Assembly: GCF_002113885.1 (NCBI RefSeq)
Contig: NW_018408906.1
Span: forward strand, 594,890 to 658,889
DNA: 64,000 nucleotides
Reading direction: 5' to 3'
From: Mizuhopecten yessoensis
Lineage: Eukaryota
Position numbers and translations under genes: made by a program. This document shows positions 4,570 through 47,130 of the stretch, piece after piece (positions within the stretch are counted from its first letter, which is position 1; the number at the start of each line of letters is the position of its first letter). Below the pieces are notes generated by a model. It was not told the DNA's origin and did not search any database. It saw only the letters and a program-made list of their open reading frames with translations.

Positions 4570-4774
4570 ATTGATGTCTTTCTTGTTGTTTTGGTGTCTA
4601 CTCGGTTTCCCTTGATATGTTTCCTTTATATTTGGTATCTCCACAGTTCCTGTTATTGTCTTTCTTTTAGTTTTGGCGTCTCTTCAGTTTATAAGGTTGT
4701 CTTCCCTTCTGTTTCAGTTTTGTTGTCTCTTCAGTAACCGTTGTTGCCTTTTGTTTTATTTTGGTGTCTCCTCA
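4570..4774 (-). repeat. Degenerate ~41-bp tandem units, reverse complement of the 62.8-63.6 kb array
   Basis: About 5 units such as GTTTTGGTGTCTCCTCA and TTGGCGTCTCTTCAGTT, matching the reverse complement of AACAGGAACTGAGGAGACACCAAAAC. The array ends abruptly where the SINE starts at 4775. Confidence 0.75.
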
Positions 4775-5379
4775 CCCCTGTATGTGGGGATCGGGAAAAG
4801 AATACACCCACAGTTACCCACGGCATGTATCGTAGGAGGCGACTAAAGTGTGAACCCCCCTGCAGAATTGGGAATTTGCTTTGGTGTCCTCTATTTAGGG
4901 ACACAAAAGCGACCACATTAAATCTGCTGCGCAAACTGCAATATTATGGATCTTTGTTTTTTTCTACTTCTAACTACCTTATATTTCCTAGCGCCTTGCT
5001 TAGCAACACCTCATTTTTGGCTTTAATGTTGAACGTTCGACCAGGTGAGGAAGGCAATGGGTTCTGTCCCCAGGCCGGAACATACCAAAGTCCTTAGAAA
5101 TGGTAGTTGTTATTCCCTGCTTAACTTTCAGCATAAAGGGGAATGGCAACAACTGGTTCACCCGTTGCTATTATAATGTGACCGGGCGGAACGATGTGCA
5201 TGGTTCCTTCGGCATGGTATTTCATTGAGATAGCAATATAAGTCGGTATCATATCCGCGCTATCACAAGGAGGCAAGCACACCAACATACCCTGTCTTCT
5301 GCACACACACGCACAAGCACGCATACATTACACACATGGAGGCAGATCTTTAAATGATCTTAGCTGTTAATAGGACGTT
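4775..5379 (+). mobile_element. Composite SINE copy 1: structured 5' module, tRNA-derived head, Meta/MESC-type domain and LINE-like tail
   Basis: Aligns by eye with 44633-45905 and with the reverse complement of 8307-8658. A-box-like TGGCTTTAATGTTG near 5018 and B-box-like GGGTTCTGTCCCC at 5059. Meta-like ATACCAAAGTCCTTAGAAATGGTAG...CCCTGCTTAAC..TCAGCAT and ATAATGTGACCGGG. Tail TAAATGATCTTAGCTGTTAATAGGACGTT. Confidence 0.85.
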
Positions 5380-8306: not shown

Positions 8307-8658
8307 TTTGGTTTGGGTTTATTTGTATCATCAGCTATGGTCATTTAAGGACGTGCCTCAATGTGTGTATCTGTGCATGTATGTATGTGTGGTGGAGGCA
8401 GGGTATGTTGGTGTGTTTGCCTCCTTGTGATAGTGTGGATCTGATGCCGACACTAGAGTGCTACCTCACTGAAATATTCCACCCGGTCACATTATACTAA
8501 TAACGAGTAAACCAGTTGTTGCCATTGGCCTAAATGCTGAACGTTAAGCAGGGCATAACATCTACCATTTTAAAGAACTTTGGTGGTCCATGGCATGGGA
8601 ACAGAACCCGTTGTCTGTCTTCACTTTGGTGAACATTCATCACTAAGGCAAAACGTGA
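8307..8658 (-). mobile_element. Meta-type tRNA SINE of the same family as 4775-5379, lacking the 5' module
   Basis: The reverse complement matches ~5010-5379: GGGTTCTGTTCCC, AAAATGGTAG, CCCTGCTTAACGTTCAGCAT, ATAATGTGACCGGGTGG, CTATCACAAGGAGGCAAACACACCAACATACCCTG, and a tail ending in an AAACC-type repeat. Confidence 0.85.
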
Positions 8659-11051: not shown

Positions 11052-11112
11052 CGTTTGAAGGTGAATTTAAAAAGCTATATACCGTTTGAAGGTGAATTTA
11101 AAAAGCTATATA
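11052..11112 (+). repeat. 31-bp direct tandem duplication
   Basis: CGTTTGAAGGTGAATTTAAAAAGCTATATA occurs twice, at the 3' junction of the adjacent L2-like end. Confidence 0.9.
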
Positions 11113-11335
11113 ACGCCCTATCTAGCTAACATAAGCCACTCTAACGCGCTTTACAGTACATGGATATACAATTTAATACAATGAATACAATTAGCATAAC
11201 ATTAATCAATACAATTTTGAGGAATTCGCAGGAGCTGCTTTATCAGGCGCTAATTACTAGTTCTATACCACCTGGCTAATATCTCCCTATGTGTGTATGC
11301 ATGCGTGTGTGCTGGAGATGTATTGTGTTCTGTTT
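11105..11335 (-). mobile_element. 3' end of an L2-type LINE or SINE (copy A)
   Basis: The reverse complement closely matches 46895-47130 and ends in an L2-like TGTAAAGCGCGTTAGAG...TAGGGCGTTATAT. Confidence 0.75.
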
Positions 11336-15900: not shown

Positions 15901-16269
15901 TTAACATTAAAGATACGTGACTCATCATTTTCAAAGTCGCTGGGTTTCTTTATCTATCAGTAAGGATGCTGCCTCCTCATTTTCAAAAAATGATCTAGTT
16001 TTCCTTAAAACTATATGGGTTATTTTCGTAGCAATATTAATTGATGCATAAAATGAGATTAAGATGTTAAGCATCAAAGAAACAAAAAAAACGAAAACTG
16101 ATATCAATGAACAGGGTGCCAATATCGAGAGGCACTGTGGGACATTAGATGCCAGTAGATATACACATAGTGTAGGTATATAGACAGGTGAAAGGTTTGG
16201 ACAGCAGCTGGTTTATATAGGCAGGTGAAAGATACAGATGGTCGACATAGACAGGCGTTTGTTGTTGAC

Positions 16270-19140
16270 AGGTGGCAGCTATAGACAGATGGCTGCTAAG
16301 GACAGATGGCTGCTATAGACAGATGGCAGCCATAGACAGGTAGCGGAATATAGACAGATGGCCGTCATAGACAGGTAACGGCTATAGACAGATGGCAGTC
16401 ATAGACAGGTGGCGGCTTTAGACAGATGGCAGTCATAGACAGATCGCTGCTATATACAGATGCCAGTCATAGACAGGTGGCGGCTACAGATAGGTGGCAA
16501 TCATAGACAGGTGGCGACTTTAGACAGATGGCAGTCATAGACAGATGGCAGTCATAGACAGGTGGCAGTTATAGACAGGTGGTAGTCATAGACAAGTAGC
16601 GGCTATAGACAGGTGGCAGTCATAGACAGGTGGCGGGTATAGACAGATGGTAGTAATAGATAGATGTCTGCTATAGACAGATGGCAGTCATAGCCAAGTG
16701 GTGGCTATAGACAGATGGCAGCCATAGACATGTGGCAGTCAAAGACAGATGGCAGTCATAGTCAGGTGGCGGCTATCGACAGATGGCAGTCACAGACAGG
16801 TGGCGGCTATAGACAGATGGCAGTCATAGACAGGTGGCGGCTATAGACAGATGGCAGTCATAGATAGGTGACGGCTATAGACAGATGGCAGTCATAGACA
16901 TGTGGCAGTCATAGACAGGTGGTGGCTGTAGAAAGATGACAGTCATAGACAGGTGGCGGCTACAGACAGGTGGCAGTCATAGACAGGTGGCGGCTACAGA
17001 CAGGTGGCAGTCATAGACAGCTGGCGGCTATAGGCAGATGGCAATCATAGACAGGTGGCAGTCATAGACAGGTGGGGGCTATTGACAGGTGGCAGTCATA
17101 GACAGGTGGCGGCTACAGACAGGTGGCAGTCATAGACAGGTGGCGGCTACAGACAGGTGGCAGTCATAGACAGGTTGCGGCTTTAGACAAATTGCAGTCA
17201 TAGTCAGGTGGCAGTCATAGACATGTGGCGGCTATGGACAGATGACGGCTATAGGTAGATGACAGGCATAGACAGATGGCAGTCATAGACAGGTGACAAC
17301 TTAGGCAGATGGCGGCTATAGACAGATGGCAGTCATAGACAGGTGGCAGTCATAGACAGATGGCGGCTAAAGATAGGTGACAGTCATAGACATGTGGAAG
17401 TCATATACAGGTAACAGCTATAGACAGGTGGCAGTCATAGATAGTTGGCAGTCATAGAAAGGTGGCAGTCATAGACAGGTAGTGGCTATAGACAGATGGC
17501 AGTCATAGACATGTGGCAGTCAAAGACAGATGGCAGTCATAGTCAGGTGGCGGATATCGACAGATGGCAATCATAGACAGGTGGCGGCTATAGACAGATG
17601 GCAGTCATAGCCAGGTGGTGGCTATAGACAGATGGCAGTCATAGACATGTGGCAGTCAAAGACAGATGGCAGGCATAGTCAGGTGGCGGATATCGACAGA
17701 TGGCAATCATAGACATGTGGCAGTCAAAGACAGATGGCAGTCATAGACAGGTGGCGGCTATAGACAGATGGCAGTCATAGACAGGTTGCGGCTTTAGACA
17801 AATTGCAGTCATAGTCAGGTGGCAGTCATAGATATGTGGCGGCTATGGACAGATGACGGCTATAGGTAGATGACAGGCATAGACAGATGGCAGTCATAGA
17901 CAGGTGACAACTTAGGCAGATGGCGGCTATAGACAGATGGCAGTCATAGACAGATGGCAGTCATAGACAGATGGCGGCTAAAGATAGGTGACAGTCATAG
18001 ACAGGTGGCGGCTACAGATAGGTGGCAGTCATAGACAGGTGGCGGCTATATACATATGGCAGTCATAGACATGTGGCAGTCATAGACAGGTGGCGGCTAT
18101 AGACAGATGGCAGTCATAGACAGGTGGCGGCTATAGACAGATGGCAGTAACAGACAGGTGGCGGCTTAGACAGATGGCTGTCATAGACATGTGGCAGTCA
18201 TAGACAGGTGGCGGCTATAGGCAGATGGCAGTCATAGACAGGTAGCGGCTATAGACAGATGGCAGTCATAGACAGGTGGCGACTATATACAGATGGCAGT
18301 CATAGAAATGTGGAAGTCATATACAGGTAACAGCTATAGACAGATGGCAGTCATATACAGGTGGCAGTCATAGATAGTTGGCAGTCATAGACAGGTGGCA
18401 GTCATAGACAGGTAGTGGCTATAGATAGGTGGCAGTCATAGACAGGTGGCAGTCATAGACAGATGACAGTCATAGACAGGTAGCGGCTATAGACAGATGA
18501 CAGTCATGGACATGTGGCGGCTACAGACAGATGGCAGTCATAGACAGGTGGCAGTCATAGACATGTAGCTGTAATAGACAGGTGGCAGTCATAGACAGAT
18601 AGCAGTCATAGACAGATAGCAGTCATAGACAGATGGCAGTCATAGACATGTGGCGGGTAAATACATGTAGCTGTTATAGACAGGTAGTGGCTATAGACAG
18701 GGTGCAGTCATAGACAGATGGCAGTCATATACATGTAGCTGTTATAGACAGGTGTCAGTCATAGACATGTGGCAGTCATAGACAGGCAACGGCTATAGAC
18801 AGATGACAAACATAGACACGTGGCGGGTATAGACATGTAGCTGTTATAGACAGATGGCAGTCATAGACAGGTGGCATATATAGACAGATGGCAGTCATAG
18901 CCAGGTGACGGTTATAGCTATAGACAGGTGGCTGTTATAGACAGATGTAAGCCATAGGCAGGTGGCGGCTTTAAACAGATGGCAGTCATCGACAGGTTGC
19001 GGCTATAGACAGGTGGCTGTTATAGACATATGTAAGCCATAGACAGGTGTCGGCTTTAGACATTTGGCAGTCATCGACAGGTGGCGGCTATAGACAGATG
19101 GCAGCCATAGACAGTGGACGGCTTTAAATAGGTTGCTGTT
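16270..19140 (+). repeat. 17-bp minisatellite (~170 units, often as a 34-bp dimer)
   Basis: Units CATAGACAGGTGGCGGC and TATAGACAGATGGCAGT alternate, with many point variants. Confidence 0.97.
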
Positions 19141-35000: not shown

Positions 35001-38000
35001 ACCTTCCATGATATCTCTCTAGTTATCCGTCGTTATATGACATGTGTGTTGTTTCTCTACTGCGTTGCTATATTACCCATGATATCTCTCTAGATATCTG
35101 TCGTTATATGACCTGTGTGTTGTTTCTCTACTCTGTAGTAACCTTCCATGATATCTCTTTAGATATCTGTCGTGATATGACCTGTGTGTTATTTCTCTAC
35201 TGCGTTGCTATATTTACCCCTCATATCTCTCTAGATATCCGTCGTTATAAGACCTGTGTGTTGTTTCTCTACTTCGTTGCTATATTTACCCATGATATCT
35301 CTCTAGATATCTGTCGTTATATGACCTGTGTGTTGTTTCTCTACTGCGTTGCTATATTTACCCATGATATCTCTCTAGATATCTGTCGATATATGACCTG
35401 TGTGTTGTTTCCCTACTGCCTTGCTATATTTACCCATGATTTCACTCTAGATATCTGTCGTTATATGGCCTGTGTGTTGTTTCTCTACTGCGTTGCTATA
35501 TTTACCCATGATATCTCTCTAGATATCTGTCGTTATATGACCTGTATATTGTTTCTCTACTGCGTTGATATTTTTACCCATGATATCTCTCTAGATATCT
35601 GTCGTTATATGACATGTGTGTTGTTTCCCTACTGCGTTGCTATATTTACCCATGATTTCACTCTAGATATCTGTCGTTAAAGGACCTGTGTGTTATTTCT
35701 CTGTTGTTTCTCTACTGCGTTGCTATATGTACCCATGATATCTCTCTAGATATCTGTCGTTATATGACCTGTGTGTTGTTTCTCTACTGCGTTGCTATAT
35801 TTACCCATGATATATCTCTAGATATCCGTCGTTATATGACATGTGTGTTGTTTCTCTACTGCGTTGCTATATCTACCCATGATTTCACTCTAGATATCAG
35901 TCGTTAAAGGACCTGTGTGTTGTTTCTCTACTGCGTTGCTATATCTACCCATGATTTCACTCTAGATATCAGTCGTTAAAGGCCCTGTGTGTTGTTTCTC
36001 TACTGCGTTGCTATATTTAACCCTGATATCTCTCTAGTTATCCGTCGTTATATGACCTGTGTGTTGTTTCTCTACTGCGTTGCTATATTTACCCATGATA
36101 TTTCTCTAGATTTCCGTCGTTATATGACCTTTATATTGTTTCTCTACTGCGTTGCTATATTTACCCCTGATATCTCTCTAGTTATCCGTCGTTATATGAC
36201 CTGTGTGTTGTTTCTCTACCGCGTTGCTATATTTACCCATGATATCTCTCTAGATATCAGTCGTTATATGACCTGTGTGTTATTTCTCTACTCTGTAGCT
36301 ACCTTCAATGATGTCGTTATATGACCTGTTTGTTGTTTCTCTACTGTGTGCTATATTTACCCATGTTATCTTCGTTATATGACCTGTGTGTTGTTTCTCT
36401 ACTGAGTTGCTATATTTTCCAATGAAATCTCTCTAGATATCTGTCGTTATATGACCTGTGTGTTGTTTGTTGCTATATTTACCCATGATATCTCTCTAGT
36501 TTCTCTACTGCGTTGCTATATTTACCCATCATATCTCTCTAGATATCCTTCATTATATGACCTGTGTGTTGTTTCTCTACTGCATTGATATATTTACCCA
36601 TGATATCTCTCTAGATATCCGTCGTTATATGACCTGTTTGTTATTTCTCTACTGCGTTGCTATATTTACCCATGATATTTGTCTAGATATCCGTCGTTAT
36701 ATGACCTGTGTGTTGTTTCTCTACTGTGTGCTATATTTACCCATGTTATCTTCGTTATATGACCTGTGTGTTGTTTCTCTACCGCGTTGCTATATTTACC
36801 CCTGATATCTCTCTAGTTATCCGTCGTTATATGACCTGTGTGTTGTTTCTCTACCGCGTTGCTATATTTACCCATGATATCTCTCTAGATATCTGTCGTT
36901 ACATGACCAATGTGTTGTTTCTCTACTGCGTTGCTATATTTACCCATGATATCTCTCTAGATATCCGTCGTTATATGGCCTCTGTGTTGTTTCTCTACTG
37001 CGTTGCTATATTTACCCATCATATCTCTCTAGATATCCGTCATTATATGACCTGTGTGTTGTTTCTCTACTGCGTTGCTATATTAACCCATGATATCTCT
37101 CTAGATATCCGTCGTTATATGACCTGTGTGTTATGACCTGTGTGTTGTTTCTCTACTGTTGCTATATTTACCCATGATATTTCTCTAGAGATCCGTCGTT
37201 ATATGACCTGTGTGTTGTTTCTCTACTGCATTGATATATTTACCCATGATATCTCTCTAAATATCCGTCGTTATATGACCTGTGTGTTATTTCTCTACTG
37301 TGTTGCTTTATTTACCCATGTTATCTCTCTAAATATCCGTCGTTATATGACCTGTTTGTTATTTCTCTACTGCGTTGCTATATTAACCCATGATATCTCT
37401 CTAGATATTCGTCGTTATATGACGTACTCTAGATATCAGTCGTTAAAGGACCTGTGTGTTGTTTCTCTACTATATCCGTCGTTATATGACATGTGTGTTG
37501 TTTCTTTACTGCGTTGCTATATTTACCCAGGATAACTTTCTAGATATCCGTCGTTATATGAACTGTGTGTTGTTTCTCTACTGCGTTTCTATATTTCCCC
37601 ATGATATCTCTCTAGATATCTGTCGTTATATGACATGTGTTTTGTTTCTCTACTGCGTTGCTATATTTACCCATGTTATCTCTCTAAATATCCGTCGTTA
37701 TATGACCTGTTTGTTATTTCTCTACTGCGTTGCTATATTTGCCCATGATATCTCTCTAGATATCTCTCGTTATATGACCTGTGTGTTGTTTGTTGCTATA
37801 TTTACCCATGATATATCTCTTCATATCCGTCGTTATATGACCTGTTTGTTGTTTCTCTACTGCGTTGCTATATTAACACATGATATCTCTCTAGATATCT
37901 GCCTGTGTGTTGTTTCCCTACTGCGTTGCTATATTTACCCATGACATCTCTCTAGATATCCGTCGTTATATAACCTGTGTGTTGTTTCTCTACTGCGTTG

Positions 38001-41000
38001 CTATATTTACCCATGATATCTATCTAGATATCCGTCGTTATATGACGTGTGTTTTTTCTCTACTCTGTAGCTACCTTCAATGATATCTCTCTAGATATCA
38101 GTCGTTATATGACCTGTGTGTTGTTTCTCTACTGCGTTGATATATTTACCCATGACATCTCTCTAGATATCCGTCGTTATATAACCTGTGTGTTGTTTCT
38201 CTACTGCGTTGCTATATTTGCCCATGATATCTCTCTAAATATCCGTCGTTATATGACCTGTGTGTTATTTCTCTACTGTGTTGCTATATTTACCTATCAT
38301 ATCTCTCTAGATGTCCGTCGTTATATGACCTGTGTATTATTTCTCTACTCTGTAGCTACCTTGAATGATATCTCTCTAGATATCCGTCGTTATATGACCT
38401 GTGTGTTATTTCTCTACTGCGTTGCTATATTTACCCATGATATCTCTCTAGATATCCGTCGTTATATGACGTGTGTTTTTTCTCTACTCTGTAGCTACCT
38501 TCAATGATATCTCTCTAGATATCTGTCGTTATATGGCCTGTGTGTTGTTTCTCTGCTGCGTTGCTATATTTACCCATGAATTCACTCTAGATATCTGTCG
38601 TTAAAGGACCTGTGTGTTATTTCTCTACTGCGTTGCTATAGTTACCCATGATATCTCTCTAGATATTCGTCGTTATATGACGTGTGTTGTTTCTCTACTG
38701 CGTTGCTATATTTACCAATGATATCTCTCTAGATATCTGTCGTTATATGACCTGTGGGTTATTTCTCTACTGTGTTGCTTTATTTACCCATGTTATCTCT
38801 CTAGATATCTGTCGTCATATGGCCTGTGTGTTTTTCTCTACTGTGTTGCTATATTTACCCATGATATCTCTCTTGATATCCGTCGTTATATGACCTGTGT
38901 GTTATTTCTCTACTGCGTTGCTATATTTACCCATGCTTTCACTCTAGATATCAGTCGTTATATGACCTGTGTGTTGTTTCCCACTGCGTTGCTATATTTA
39001 CCCATGATATCTCTCTAGATATCCGTCGTTATATGACCTGTGTGTTGTTTTCCTACTGAGTTGCTATATTTACCCATGATATCTCTCTAGAAATCTGTCG
39101 TTATATGACCTGTGGGTTGTTTCTCTACTGCGTTGCTATATTTACCCATGCTTTCACTCTAGATATCAGTCGTTATATGACCTGTGTGTTGTTTCCCACT
39201 GCGTTGCTATATTTACCCATGATATCTCTCTAGATATCCGTCGTTATATGACCTGTGTTTTGTTTCCCTAGTGCGATGCTATATATTCCCATGATATCTC
39301 TCTAGATATCTGTCGTTATATGCCTTTGTGTTGTTTCTCTACTCTGTAGCTTCCTACCATGATATATCTCTAGATATCCGTCGTTATATGACCTGTTTGT
39401 TGTTCTGTACTGCGTTGCTATATTTACCCATGATATCTCTCTAGAAATCTGTCGTTATATGACCTGTGTGTTGTTTCTCTACTGCGTTGCTATATTTTCC
39501 CATGATATCTCTCTAGATATCTGTCGTTATATGACCTGTGTGTTGTTTCTCTACTGCGTTGTTATATTTATCCATGATATCTCTCTAGATATCCGTCGTT
39601 ATATGACCTGGGTGTTGTTTCTCTACTGCCTTGCTATATTTACCCATCATATCTCTCTAGATATCAGTAGTTATATGACGTGTGTTGATTCTCTACTCTG
39701 TAGGTTCCTACCATGATATAGCTCTAGATATCCGCCGTTATATGACCTGTTTGTTATTTCCCTACTGCCATGCTATATTTCCCCATGATATCTCTCTCGA
39801 TATCTGTCGTTATATGCCCTGTGTGTTATTTCCCCACTGCGATGCTATATTTACTCTACTGCGTTGCTATATTTTACCATGATATCTCTCTAGGTATCTG
39901 TCGTTATATGACCTATGTGTTGTTTCTCTACTCTGCGTTGTTATATTTATCCATGATACGTCGTTATATGACCTGGTTGTTGTTTCTCTACTGCCTTGCT
40001 ATATTTACCCATACTGCGTTGTTATATTTATCCATGATATCTCTCTAGGTATCTGTCGTTATATGATTAGATATCTGTCGTGATATGACCTGTGTGTTGT
40101 TTTCCTACTGAGTTGCTATATTTACCCACGATATCTCTCTAGATACCCATGCTTTCACTCTAGATATCTGTCGTGATATGACCTGAGTGTTATTTCTCTA
40201 CTGTGTTGCTTTATTTACCCATGTTATCTCTCTAGATATTTGTCGTTATATGACCTGTTTGTTGTTTCTCTACTGAGTTGCTATATTTACCAATGAAATC
40301 TCTCTAGATATCTGACGTTATATGACCTGTGTGCTGTTTCTCTACTGCGTTACTATATTTTTACCATGATATCCCTCTAGATATCAGTCGTTACAGGACC
40401 TGTGTGTTGTTTCTCCACTGCGTTGCTATATTTGCCCAGGATATCTTTCTAGATATCTGTCGTTACATCACCTGTGTGTTGTTTCTCCACTGCGTTGCTA
40501 TATTTCCCCATGATATCTCTCTACTCTACTGTGTTGCTATATTTACCCATGAAATCTCTCTAGATATCTGACGTTATATGACCTGTGTTTTGTTTCCCTA
40601 GTGCGATGCTATATATTCCCATGATATCTCTCTCGATATCTGTCGTTATCTGCGTTGCTATATTTACCCCTGATATCTCTCTAGTTATCCGTCGTTATAT
40701 GACCTGTTTGTTATTTCCCTACTGCCATGCCATATTTACCCATGATATAGCAACGCAGTAGAGTAAATATAGCATCGCAGTGGGGAAATAACACACAGGG
40801 CATATAACGACGGATATCTCTCTAGATATCACTCGTTATATGACGTGTGCTGTTTCTCTACTGCGTTGATATATTTACCCATGATATCGCTCGAGAAATC
40901 TGTCGTTAAAGGACCTGTGTGTTATTTCCCCACTGCGATGCTATATTTACCCATGTCATCTCTCTAGATATCTGTCGATATATGACCTGTGTGTTAGTTC

Positions 41001-41990
41001 TCTACTGCGTTGCTGTATTTACCAATGATATCTTTCTAGATATCTGTCGTTAAAAGACCTGTGTGTTATTTCCCTACTTCCATGCTATATTTACCCATGA
41101 TTTCACTCTAGATATCTGTCGTGATATGACCTGAGTGTTATTTCTCTACTCTGTAGCTACTTTCAATGATATCTCTCTAGATATCTGTCGTGATATGACC
41201 TGTGTGTTATTTCCCTACTGCCATGCTATATTTACCCATGATATCTCTCTCGATATCTGTCGTTATATGACCTGTGTGTTATTTCCCTACTGCGATGCTA
41301 TATTTACCCATGATATCTCTCTAGATATCAGTCGTTATATGACGTGTGATGCTTCTCTACTGCGTTGCTATATTTTTACCATGATATCTCTCTGGATATC
41401 CGTCGTTATATGACCTGTGTGTTGTTTCCCTACTGCCATGCTATATTTACCCATTATATCTCTCTAGATATCTGTCGTTATATGAACTGTGTGTTATTTC
41501 TCTACTGCGTTGCTTTATTTTTACCATGATATCGCTCTAGATATCCGTCGTTATATGACCTGTGTGTTATTTCCCCACTGCGATGCTATATTTACCCATG
41601 ATATCTCTCTCGATATCTGTCGTTATATGACCTGTGTGTTATTTCTCTACTGCGTTGCTTTATTTTTACCATGATATCTCTCTAGATATCCGTCGTTATA
41701 TGACCTGTTTGTTGTTTCTCTACTGCGTTGCTAATTTACCCATGATATCTAGATATCCGTCGGTATACAACCTGTGTGTTATTTCTCTACTCTGTAGCTA
41801 CCTTCAATGATATCTCTCTAAATATCTGTCGTTATATGACCTGTGTGTTGTTTCTCTACTCTGTAGCTACCTTCAATGATATCTCTCTAGATATCTGTCG
41901 TGATATGACCTGTGTGTTGTTTCTCTACTGCGTTGCTATATTTTCCCGTAATATCTCTCTTGACACTCGGTCGTCATTTGACCTGCAAGT
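35001..41990 (+). repeat. 72-bp satellite array (~7 kb, roughly 95 units)
   Basis: Consensus CCATGATATCTCTCTAGATATCTGTCGTTATATGACCTGTGTGTTGTTTCTCTACTGCGTTGCTATATTTAC. The period is 72 (e.g. 35290 to 35362). A recurrent variant reads CTCTGTAGCTACCTTCAATGA. Confidence 0.98.
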
Positions 41991-42691: not shown

Positions 42692-44632
42692 TGCGCTGTA
42701 CTTACATGGGAGTTAACGCAGAAAGTATGGGTTTAAAAATCATAAATAGTCTTCTCTGCATATTTGAGACCAAGACTCAACCTGATGTCCACCACTACAT
42801 GATCGAATGAGGCGACTAATTAGACAGAATGGGAGAATGTGTATTTTTCCTCTCAGGATGTACGCTTTCCTGGTCAATGTATCATATACAATATCATTTT
42901 TTTTAGGGAACGAATTGGAATTGTCACAGTACAAAATGTTGCAGCTTCTACTTAAAATAAAATAATGCGATTGACAGGTTGTCACGAATTCGAATATTGA
43001 GGTGTATATTAATATGAAACTAAAAACAAGAAATATGATAATCATGGCCGTGAGGTCGCCAATGATATTCAAAATTGGTGAGAGAATTGATTAGACCTGA
43101 AGTAATATACGACACATGAGATGTATATACATGTGAAACTAAGCAGAGTATTATGTTCTAGATGTCGCTACCGGCCTTACTAAAAAGGTGAGAGAGTAAA
43201 ATAAAAAATTACAATTGAAGTTATATCCGACGTAAATGTGTAAATTTCATGAAAGAATGTTGAACTGTAAATACCCTTATAGAAGGGAGACTGGGTCATA
43301 TCAAGATATAGCTTAAGGAACGTATTTAATTAGGAACACCTGTGTGCCTCATCAGTATTTGAGATCTTCGGTTGATGTGAATATTTTCTTTATCTGCGGA
43401 TGATTTCTATCATAAAATAACTCGCATCGAAGAACTAGGGGTGTATTTCAATTGAAGGTAATTGCTCTATCCAACTCGCCCCAGATCCTTTTCACTCCTC
43501 GTCAACAAGTTGTTTATCATTCATCTTTCCACCAACATCATTACATCTCAAGGGATAAAAATAACGTCTCTTTATATAGCTCCAAGATAAAATATGTAGA
43601 GTTTTCAAACCGGAAGGTATCATACATGCTATCGCTGCCCGCGGGAAATAATTTTGGTCGGTAACATTTGAAATGACGCCTCGCTGATCATGGGTATTTT
43701 ATGGTACACCTCAGGACGCGATTCACACGATGACCTTCGCGATAATAATATGATTGTTTTCTATATCTTTAAATTATTCTCATTGTTTTATACGACGTAT
43801 AATCTAAAAGGAAAAACAATTTTGCCCATCCCGGAATACGGAGATATTGAAATATATTTGAATATGATTGAAATGCCGTTACGGTCACTTGGTTTTATAG
43901 TAACAGTTAGGTATGCACTGTATTTAACTGTTAGGTGCCGCTATCGTCAAATATGGCGCGGTATGTAGCCATCCTACACATGTACCATCCTAAGGCTAAG
44001 ATATACACAGCACTGGTTTTGAAATGATAACAGACCTGCTGTATATCATATGAAATCTATGATAAGAGTCCGTTCTTCAATTTTCATTTGAGCGAGCCAA
44101 TGACGAGCTAAAATGAAAACTGTGTGACTAGTTCCATAACTTTCGTATAATAAGGAATGGAGGAATCGAATATAGTTTTCATCATGTCATCAAGAATTCC
44201 ACTGTTTAAAAAAAAAAAAAATCCAACTTTTTATTTGCTCGATATCTATTTGCTTTAATGTCACAATATGATCTGAGAATTTCTTGATAACGTCGCTATA
44301 GGTTGTTTTAAAACTATTGTTTGTGCAAATTGCAACATGAATGTACGTACTGTTAGACCTGTCAATTAGAGCACTCCTGATGCCAATGCTGCCGTTCATA
44401 TTAGTCAGATTATTTTTAATTACACAGAATCAAGTCACATCAATACATGTTTGTATACATGTACAGTGGGGCCTAGTTAATATCTGTTTTACGCAGAGGT
44501 ACTGAGTGCACAGGTTCTGTTTACACAAATATGTATAAGTTAGGCCTTGTTAAAAGTGGGTTGATGTACTTCTCTAGATTCGATATTTAACTGTTATAGT
44601 ATATAAATAAAAAAATAATTGCATAACCTTGA

Positions 44633-45905
44633 CCCCCCTGCAGGTGGGGGATCGGGAAAAGAATACCCCTGCTATTACCCACTGCATGTATAGTAGGAGG
44701 CGACTAATGTAGGAACTCCTGCAGAATTGGGGATTTGCTTTGGTGTCCTCTATTTTGGGACACAAAAGCGACCACAATAAATCTGCTGCGCCCATTGTAA
44801 TATTTGGGATATTTATCTCTCTTTCTACTTCTAACTACCTTTTATTTCCTAGCACCTTTCTTGGCAACACCGGGACATACTGTAGTCCTTACTGGCAGTT
44901 GTTATTCCCTGCTTAACGTTCAGCATTTAGGGGAATGGCAACAACTGGTTCACCCGTTGTCAGTATAATGTGACCGGGCGGAATGCTGTGATTGGTGCCT
45001 TCGGCGTGGCATTTAAGGTCATATGAGTGTATTGTTAAACGGAAATAGGAAGTACATCCCAAGTTGAAAATCCAATGTAGGGAGACGGTATCATAATTTC
45101 CGCATATTCTAATGTTTAATATTAAACTGATGAATACTGTATGCTAATTATTGACAGAACATTGTGTTCTTTCAATATTAAAGTATTGCAAAGCAATCCA
45201 GGCCTTAATTCAGTTGTTTTTAAATCAATGAGTCACATGTGTCCATTTTTCTGTACTTCAGGAAACCGGCTACCTATTTCACTACTGTGAAGTTTTTCAA
45301 GAACGATAACGCTTGCATGCAATTACTATGTGTATATGGTTTTATTATAAAATGTCAATTTTTAATCGTTTATAGATGATTAATTTTACACAATTTCAGC
45401 ATTTATGAAATTGACATACATTAATGCAATACTAATCTATGTTATTATCATTTTTATTGACATTATTTTGCAAAATAAATGTGTGTTTCAATTATTTTTT
45501 ACATGAATTTCCATTTAAAATCCTTAACATTCTGACAACCTATTTTTTTTTTGTGGCAGAACATTTTCTTTACTTCAAAGCAATATAACTACAAAATTTG
45601 AATAAATTCTACTGAGAAATGGCGACACAATCTTATTACCTTAAGTGAGATATAGTAGCACTATAACGTCGGCTTCAGATCCGCGCTATCACAAGGAGGC
45701 AAGCACACCAATATACCCTGTCTGCTGCATACACATACGCAAGCACGCTTACATTACACACATGGAGGTACGTCCTTAACAGCTAATGTCATTTAAGGAC
45801 GTATTTTTCAAGGTCATGCTTGATTTGGTTGGGTTTAATTTTGTTTAACGTCCTATTAACAGCTAATGTCATTTAATAGGACGTTAAACAAAATTAAACC
45901 CAACC
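44633..45905 (+). mobile_element. Composite SINE copy 2: 5' module present, tRNA head deleted, split by a TTAA insertion, rearranged tail
   Basis: 44633-44872 matches 4775-5010. The sequence then jumps directly to GGGACATAC (equivalent to ~5077). It resumes after the insertion at 45645 with CCGCGCTATCACAAGGAGGCAAGCACACCAA. Confidence 0.85.
45017..45640. mobile_element. Non-autonomous Kolobok-like DNA transposon (624 bp)
   Basis: TTAA duplicated at 45013-45016 and 45641-45644. Termini GGTCATATGAGTGT and (reverse complement) GGTAATAAGATTGT. Removing it restores the SINE seen intact in copy 1. A TTAA TSD with 5'-RR ends is the Kolobok signature. Confidence 0.8.
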
Positions 45906-45930
45906 AAATCAAGCATTACCTTGAAAAATA
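45802..45930. repeat. 58-bp near-perfect inverted repeat with a 13-nt spacer
   Basis: 45802-45859 is the reverse complement of 45873-45930 with one mismatch. Confidence 0.93.
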
Positions 45931-46894: not shown

Positions 46895-47130
46895 TACAAT
46901 ACAATACATCTCCAGCACACACGCAAGCATACACCCATAGGGAGATATTAGCTAGGTGGCATAGGTCTAGTAGTTAGCGCCTGATAAGGCAGTTCCTGCG
47001 AATTCCTCAAAATTGAATTTATTGATGTATATGCTAATTGTATTAATTGTATATCTATGTACTGTAAAGCGCTTTAGAGTGGCTTATGTTAGCTAGATAG
47101 GGCACTATATCAAATGTTGTATATTATTAA
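46895..47130 (+). mobile_element. 3' end of an L2-type LINE or SINE (copy B)
   Basis: Matches the reverse complement of 11105-11335. Ends TGTAAAGCGCTTTAGAG...GGGCACTATATCAAATG...TATTATT. Confidence 0.75.

Follow-up and report, generated by a model that had tools for sequence, protein, structure and literature searches.

A predicted double-pseudoknot RNA fold heads a Mizuhopecten yessoensis SINE, recurs in LINEs and RNA viruses, and may be an exoribonuclease-resistant RNA

The window analysed here, a 64,000-nt stretch of the Mizuhopecten yessoensis genome, carries at positions 44633-44713 the 5′ head of a SINE of ~630 nt, the start of a very abundant mobile element. Across families, this head covaries as two consecutive pseudoknots accompanied by a T-loop-like hairpin and a UAA triplet. 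The original prediction of a conserved structured RNA at the 5′ end of a retroposon is therefore borne out by covariation over 25 families, although the structure consists of two pseudoknots and not of the row of hairpins that had been described. Our preferred reading, held tentatively, is that the head belongs to a new class of exoribonuclease-resistant RNA (xrRNA) that would make the 5′ end of the element from read-through transcripts. The element itself is known; what is new is the RNA fold, and its function lies between two testable options, an xrRNA and a ribozyme. Papers given by PMC number are cited for the parts consulted.

The features of the element were located as follows.

44621..44632, + strand: 5′ target-site duplication, 12 nt (partner 45913-45924, one mismatch)
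44633, + strand: 5′ end of the element, 6 nt upstream of loop U44639
44633..44672, + strand: pseudoknot I of the head (S1 44636-38/44648-50; loop U44639; S2 44640-46/44666-72)
44660-65, + strand: AGAATA at the end of the pseudoknot I linker, within 44633..44672
44673..44713, + strand: pseudoknot II with an inserted hairpin (Px 44673-75/44684-86; Pz 44678-82/44709-13)
44688(+TA bulge)-44693/44701-04, + strand: P4 hairpin in pseudoknot II, with a 7-nt T-loop-like loop at 44694-44700 (pattern placed by what we take to be tRNA numbering) and UAA at 44705-07
44716..44808, + strand: second, internal double-pseudoknot copy without P4 and without UAA (S2 44721-25/44782-86)
44737-44769, + strand: hairpin insertion in the linker of the internal copy, placed by alignment to the first head
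44809..44871, + strand: CT-rich spacer; the 66-nt degenerate tRNA segment that comes next in other copies is deleted here
44872..45014, + strand: end of the tRNA-related part and MESC core domain
45656..45912, + strand: 3′ body with a tail of AAACC-type repeats; ~640 nt with no relation to the SINE (45015-45655) lie between the core and this part
45913..45924, + strand: 3′ target-site duplication
4773..5379, + strand: the other copy of the SINE in the window, comprising the head, a degenerate tRNA part and the MESC core

The DNA search of the same genome returned 3793 first-look candidates, of which 40 were scored and 30 taken; these were chosen for a full head and so say nothing on the share of full-length copies. 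The aligned copies ran to ~630 nt, from a sharp 5′ start through CT-rich spacer, degenerate tRNA segment and core to an AAACC-type tail, and 15 of 29 were flanked by a target-site duplication of 7-16 nt (12 nt for the copy at 44633). The tRNA part begins ~245 nt into the element, has a B box without RA and T4 runs upstream, and yielded no tRNA with ARAGORN. An ordinary Pol III tRNA-SINE, which would open with a tRNA head whose A and B boxes are intact, was rejected on the position of this part and the degenerate state of its B box. Both copies in the window are likely decayed and inactive, to judge from their broken stems. Relative to the family, the copy at 44633 loses one S2 pair by A>C at 44667, and substitutions at 44674, 44692 (C>A) and 44711 each cost another; because all four break a pair, this copy is likely decayed. 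In the copy at 4773-5379, which scores 49.3 bits with the head model, S2 is broken by substitutions.

Other repeats were observed in the window. A 129-nt palindrome at 45802-45930 is an inverted duplication of the SINE tail, target-site duplication and flank, and yields spurious miRNA-family matches below the gathering score. A headless tRNA-MESC relative of the SINE lies on the minus strand at 8326-8653 (73% like the 4773-5379 copy), and a further dispersed repeat pair, inverted, occupies 11108-11329 and 46898-47110 (223 nt, 87%). Tandem arrays of 17, 72 and 41 nt are found at 16267-19114, 35006-41985, 62813-63596 and 4571-4774; the SINE copy at 4773-5379 adjoins a decayed inverted copy of the 41-nt array.

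The structured region had been delimited as 44633..44793, which is really one ~80-nt motif followed by a second copy that lacks the core. Indeed, the internal copy at 44716-44808 aligns to the first head at 44633-44713. By eye, its 3′ side resembles the junction between the single Chlamys head and the CT-rich sequence in the supplement of PMC4758252. The two heads may have come about either by duplication, with the inner copy losing the core, or by gain of a complete head in front; both routes would imply that the core is required at the very start of the element. Linker hairpin insertions were also seen in the first, complete head of three subfamilies (L032, L041 and L047). In locus L051 (G000:C76737:55500-56100), tandem 38-47-nt units made of the second pseudoknot and the P4 hairpin stand ahead of an MESC body, and this array is a satellite derived from the head motif.

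Homologues were collected by scanning metagenomes, genome contigs and viral contigs. An 18-mer had been said to recur in repeats of distant invertebrates, and this recurrence was seen in the metagenome scan. Its exact 19-mer search gave at least 120 stretches, which grouped into 8 clusters (at least two members each) plus 20 singletons, and which are read as animal repeats by their copy structure, target-site duplications aside. In one cluster (L117, L140), a tRNA-like segment follows the head directly in the SINE of another animal, which is a second case of fusion between the head and a tRNA-SINE. The genome contig scan gave 13 matches, 9 of them with the fold or part of it; in L191 and L196 the head stands ahead of ORF1 and an APE-RT ORF2. 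Occurrence in bacteria was considered and rejected: four of the 13 (L186, L187, L194 and L198) score as chance, and the other nine lie at contig ends, beside microsatellites or on LINE ORFs, which points to eukaryotic contamination. At L189, L190, L191, L195, L196 and L197, SINE or LINE sequence of eukaryotic type lies at the ends of contigs or within them in bacterial genome bins, and probably stems from contamination or chimeric assembly.

Among viral contigs, the initial scan gave 9 matches, 7 with the fold. Of the relaxed scans that followed, four added no locus (19, 11, 0 and at least 120 matches), one with 18 matches added L222 and one with 47 added L315. The pattern that found L315 made no demand for the hairpin, and the same 7-nt loop occurs there where it would be expected; strong S2 pairing occurred in only two loci among the 47 matches of this pattern, both with the 7-nt loop region. 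A model built from the non-viral rows gave the viral copies 42-69 bits, versus 21-26 for chance matches to the 18-mer.

Covariation was assessed in 25 representatives picked by hand, 18 of retroposon type and 7 viral; truncated or decayed singletons and six chance 18-mer matches were left out. The fold runs from S1 through a one-base loop (U in 23 of the 25) to S2, then through a linker of variable length ending in AGAAUW to pseudoknot II, formed by Px and Pz, which holds hairpin P4 and UAA inside its linker. Partner-swap tests between families, with anchors taken from sequence motifs and checked by eye, gave p values of 5e-5 for S2, 5e-5 for Px, 2e-4 for Pz and 1e-4 for S1, the last partly built in since the 5′ anchor needed downstream Gs. 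Five non-partner pairs of windows, used as controls, gave p from 0.14 to 0.94. The covariation that had been proposed as a check was thus found in all four helices (p≤2e-4); most of it is carried by two pseudoknot helices and a small stem that were absent from the hairpins first described. Viral rows alone gave 1e-4 for S2, 0.03 for Px, 0.29 for Pz and 0.05 for S1, with 0.045 for Pz and 0.16 for S1 by energy. Pz is poor in L178, L179 and L182, and the viral-only support for Pz and S1 is weak.

With 16 non-viral rows aligned by MAFFT, pairing held in 86.3% of 350 cells, compared with 36-47% in slid controls, and 50 double changes were counted versus 20.6 after shuffling (0 of 500 shuffles as high). 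Pz is under-counted here, at 68.8% paired, as MAFFT sets long and short families one column apart; the partner-swap test covers it without an alignment. Kinship among host families remains in these controls, and the viral rows are the most independent support. RNAalifold recovered S2, Px and P4 unaided, and the sense strand carried 31 G.U against 13 A.C combinations. P4 showed no covariation in the 16-row alignment, being invariant in part since the scans required it. Its loop fits what we take to be the T-loop pattern, G-UNNRA-NN-C, in 25 of 25 representatives, the scans having selected for the loop. Pairing of the loop U with the third T-loop base is compensated in viral L222 only and not in L196, and was not accepted. 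Folding of single copies is weak evidence for the fold, with z of -2.0 at 44633-44793 (7 of 200 shuffles as good) and -0.7 for the copy at 4773-5379 (49 of 200). Tandem complete or near-complete heads with compensatory differences between copies were observed in the repeat L073, as in L177 and L222.

Set against this fold, the five stems named at the outset are all in the sequence at 44633-44793 and fared differently. CCCCC/GGGGG is S1, as family and cross-family comparison show. TCGT/GCGA followed by CTAA is P4, broken here by C>A at 44692 and intact in the 4773-5379 copy, just as had been stated. The GCAGA/TCTGC stem is also real, but it belongs to the second, internal copy as its pseudoknot stem; likewise, the GTGTCC hairpin at 44737-44769 exists as a family-specific insertion in the linker of that copy. 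GGGAAA/TTACCC was discarded, as it contains an A.A mismatch and its left arm falls in a linker that varies between families. TGTAGG/CCTGCA occurs in the 44633 copy only: the family sequence TGTGGG pairs with CCCAC at 44678-82, and the 4773-5379 copy reads AGTGTG. Because this stem is not kept in both copies, the alternative fold that it had suggested is unsupported. Several of the hairpins first named are thus copy-specific.

The position of the 5′ end was determined from 20 of 29 copies of this family and from 23 of 33, 21 of 28 and 13 of 22 copies of three others. Six nucleotides upstream of the loop U, the base was C in 19 of 20 copies of this family, whereas the other three had A (19 of 23), G (19 of 21) and G (11 of 13); at -7, agreement was at background level in all four. 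The start was blurred in a fifth family of 12 copies (8 used). Over the 25 families, each of the four bases occurs at -7 and at -6, and the conserved blocks lie 20-139 nt from the first loop U. The 5′ end is thus a structural ruler and not a sequence start site, and variable bases at -7 and -6 would be expected of the footprint of an enzyme, less so of a catalytic pocket. Four random-fragment runs of raw reads held 1068-1712 family reads each, from both mate strands and with no pile-up at the start, and 7-23 reads of the LINE head; random fragments are uninformative on 5′ ends.

In viral contigs the motif lies on the coding strand at the start of 3′ UTRs or in intergenic regions. By Pfam, the genes ahead of it encode a tetra-like capsid (L178, L183), a toti-like RdRp (L180), an RdRp and a noda-like capsid (L182), an RdRp (L184) and an S-domain coat protein (L222); L177 and L315 gave no Pfam match. 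The motif begins 4 (L182), 9 (L178), 20 (L180), 72 (L184) or 99 (L177) nt past the last stop codon, is followed by 14-119 nt in six contigs, and is in tandem in L177 and L222. L179, a DNA virus contig of 212 kb that also encodes an NAD-dependent DNA ligase, has it between a 157-codon ORF and a 959-codon frame. RNA viruses have no DNA stage, and their possession of the motif together with its covariation therefore excludes a role as DNA only.

A further line of evidence came from a LINE. A search with the L196 protein brought up a young LINE family of the M. yessoensis genome (52% identity); its ORF1 matches a zinc knuckle weakly, and its ORF2, of 1222 aa, is of the APE-RT-RNase H type. The 5′ UTR of this LINE shares homology with those of L196 and L191, but the first ~140 nt differ: the LP head (0 matches, 6 regions) is absent, and in 13 of 30 copies (0 of 500 shuffles) the start can be read as an HDV-like ribozyme, with a G.U first pair, P3/L3, P1.1 and a C-containing J4/2. 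The descriptor, nested P1-P2-P3/L3-P1.1-P4-J4/2, is what we take to define the HDV fold. Copies begin at G1 in 19 of 23. The same 5′ UTR therefore sits behind the LP head in L196 and L191 and behind the HDV-like fold in the LINE of this genome, so that the LP head and a predicted HDV-like fold occupy the same slot, apparently the one where the 5′ end is made. Many near-identical intact copies of this young, putatively I-group LINE, whose first base is G1 of a canonical HDV-like fold in which P4 is long, were noted in the genome (L240:1523-1650 and L246-L275 in G000, e.g., C3396:504822 onward). Its tail weakly resembles that of the present SINE (72% over 53 nt, E 0.11), making it a candidate partner only. 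PMC5786205 lists six clades with 5′ ribozymes, Nimb/I not being among them in the part consulted.

Searches for known RNA classes bore out the earlier failure to fit the sequence to HDV, hammerhead or twister. Rfam gave nothing at gathering in the window and no ribozyme match on the head in 28 loci (E≤10 for 14 loci and E≤5 for 14), with twister, twister-sister, pistol, hatchet and hairpin included; weak twister-P1 and hammerhead rows lay elsewhere in their loci. Rfam also missed the HDV-like fold in L240, a mutated copy of the LINE, and this test is therefore insensitive to distant members. The HDV descriptor matched 0 of 50 strands of the 25 heads and 0 of 4 window strands, and the hammerhead core CUGANGA plus GAAA was in 0 of 50. 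Attempts to fit the head by hand to the HDV, twister (with P3/P5 permutations), pistol and hatchet folds failed on strand order. Among xrRNAs, classes 1 and 2 of flaviviruses need a three-way junction with a double pseudoknot (PMC12397905), whereas the head has two H-type pseudoknots and no junction. The definition of class 3 does not apply either, as there is no J1/2-P2 and the T-loop is outside the apical loop.

The precise 5′ ends of non-site-specific LINEs and promoter-less SINEs have so far been ascribed to internal promoters or self-cleaving ribozymes. The head points either to a third route, in which an exonuclease trims the RNA back to a roadblock, or to a new class of ribozyme. On the reading that we prefer, the head would fold in cells as two pseudoknots with the T-loop-like hairpin, and would stall the 5′-to-3′ exoribonucleases Xrn1 and Xrn2. 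A host read-through transcript would then be trimmed to the first base of the element, which would need no promoter of its own; the trimmed, uncapped RNA would be copied via its tail by the protein of an I-group (APE-RT-RNase H) LINE, and the viral copies would yield a short non-coding 3′ RNA. That the head makes the 5′ end is suggested by the structural ruler and the slot swap; that it does so as an xrRNA is suggested by the viral 3′ position and tandem copies, which fit exonuclease blocking, by the fixed 6-nt offset with no conserved base at the boundary, and by the parts held in common with class 3 xrRNA. Moreover, a flavivirus xrRNA stalls Xrn2 in vitro (PMC9512700). Against it, frameshift-type H-pseudoknots do not stall Xrn1 (PMC10321173), and pseudoknot I is of the H type. 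The order of its parts is unlike that of every xrRNA class, with the T-loop on a separate downstream hairpin and the three-way junction absent; a ribozyme would fit the slot swap no less well, and an uncapped LINE RNA would still need a route to translation. In its broader form, the proposal is of a new compact RNA class passed between retroposons (LINEs and SINEs), RNA viruses and a large DNA virus, a host-genome xrRNA acting as a nuclease roadblock with which animal retrotransposons carve their 5′ ends from host transcripts and functionally interchangeable with HDV-like ribozymes; we hold this to be possible, at slightly less than an even chance.

A self-cleaving ribozyme of an undescribed class, cutting 6 nt upstream of the first loop and freeing the element RNA, is unlikely by our estimate. 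It would account for the exact 5′ end and for the head replacing an HDV-like fold in the same LINE slot, and it would agree with known LINE biology, as HDV-like and twister ribozymes occur at other LINEs (PMC6765202, PMC5786205, PMC8501958) and PMC4758252 reports the head from an RTE element, RTE being a clade in which 5′ ribozymes occur (PMC5786205). The size, pseudoknots and invariant unpaired nucleotides are those sought in candidates by PMC10085705, where, on the other hand, 10 of 10 similar-looking candidates did not cleave. Linear RNA viruses carry small ribozymes in their UTRs, tandem pairs included, but mostly in 5′ UTRs or ahead of ORFs (PMC13725137), whereas a cut a few nucleotides past the last stop codon would sever the whole viral 3′ end. 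Neither an HDV parse nor a hammerhead core was found in the 50 strands, and no Rfam ribozyme matched the head. Self-cleavage ranks second to the xrRNA because no conserved base flanks the presumed cut and the viral copies are at xrRNA-type sites.

The two other explanations leave the 5′ end to be made otherwise or on DNA. That the fold binds a protein or the ribosome, for stability, cap-independent translation or as a signal to the LINE protein or a host endonuclease, is distinctly improbable in our judgement. The near-invariant 18-mer and AGAAUA across phyla and viruses do suggest a conserved host partner, the motif of L179 lies 119 nt behind one ORF and ~140 nt ahead of the 959-codon frame, and HDV-like LINE heads are also thought to help translation (PMC6765202). 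This would leave unexplained why non-coding SINEs keep the head at base 1 with a fixed 6-nt offset, and why the present family has placed a complete head ahead of one that lacks the core. That the head works as DNA, as the internal RNA polymerase II promoter which Matetovici 2016 proposed under the name "LINE promoter", with the RNA fold secondary, seems very unlikely. The position of the head at the 5′ end, the degenerate tRNA B box behind it and the T4 runs, which would stop Pol III, fit Pol II, and the L1Tc head of trypanosomes serves as a promoter as well as a ribozyme (PMC4758252), making a dual role possible; yet long-range covariation with a G.U bias on one strand, presence in RNA viruses, a start base of C, A or G, and conserved blocks 20 to 139 nt from the first loop, unlike core promoter elements with their fixed spacing, all argue against it.

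The motif would offer an account of the conserved "LP" head that was left open in 2016. The shared cis-element ties retroposons to RNA viruses, the HDV/LP swap in sister LINEs is a built-in comparison, and the head would offer a compact natural fold for RNA stabilisation.

The head was already in print as the LP head of pectinoid MESC SINEs (PMC4758252, Matetovici 2016), LINE-derived and named for a presumed LINE promoter that was left untested. There, the first ~70 nt of MESC SINEs correspond to the start of Nimb and RTE LINEs, and a 5′ domain is common to Nimb-17_LMi, I-3_DR and RTE-9_CPB. The layout of the present element is that of the pectinoid MESC SINEs, or LP-SINEs. It has a LINE-derived ~70-nt head clearly homologous, by eye, to the Chlamys head of Fig. 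S2, a head also found ahead of APE-RT ORFs in L191 and L196; CT-rich spacer, degenerate tRNA-derived segment and MESC core follow in the same order, and the tandem-repeat tail and variable target-site duplications agree too. At ~630 nt versus 520, the family is longer because it has two head copies, and it may be one of those drawn in the figures of that paper. The account in the consulted parts of PMC4758252 differs in proposing a promoter and in having neither an RNA structure nor an occurrence in viruses. A literature search covering sources other than subscription papers, Repbase notes and bioRxiv supplements found no description of the fold, of its viral copies or of a retrotransposon xrRNA.

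Among known RNAs, coremin xrRNA (PMC10520033) is similar in being a short conserved motif of viral UTRs that needs a downstream hairpin; the head lacks its 4-bp hairpin with YGAD loop and conserved spacer, and differs in sequence and order. The twister variants of Schistosoma Perere-3 (PMC8501958) are likewise structured 5′ modules that set the 5′ end of a non-site-specific LINE, but cleavage there is internal to the fold, and the head has no twister match in Rfam. Closer is class 3 xrRNA, which consists of P1, a J1/2 bulge, P2, an apical loop with a T-loop, an AGY linker and a pseudoknot (PMC12397905); xrRNAs lie in 3′ UTRs and intergenic regions, and class 3 halts Xrn1 at the base of P1 (PMC6299227, PMC12397905). 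The head shares a loop pairing downstream, an AG-led linker, a T-loop, the 3′ UTR or intergenic position and, as predicted for the head, a product that begins at the base of the first stem. It departs from class 3 in having no J1/2 bulge or P2, a T-loop on a separate downstream hairpin, a second pseudoknot and a place in host retroposons, and its resistance is only predicted. From the HDV-like ribozymes of LINEs (R2, RTE, Ingi/L1Tc and LOA; PMC6765202, PMC5786205), it differs in lacking P3/L3 and P1.1, and therefore an HDV active site, and in its variable first base; it has in common with them the same slot, the apparent job, a double pseudoknot and, in the CUAA before its last strand, a resemblance to HDV J4/2.
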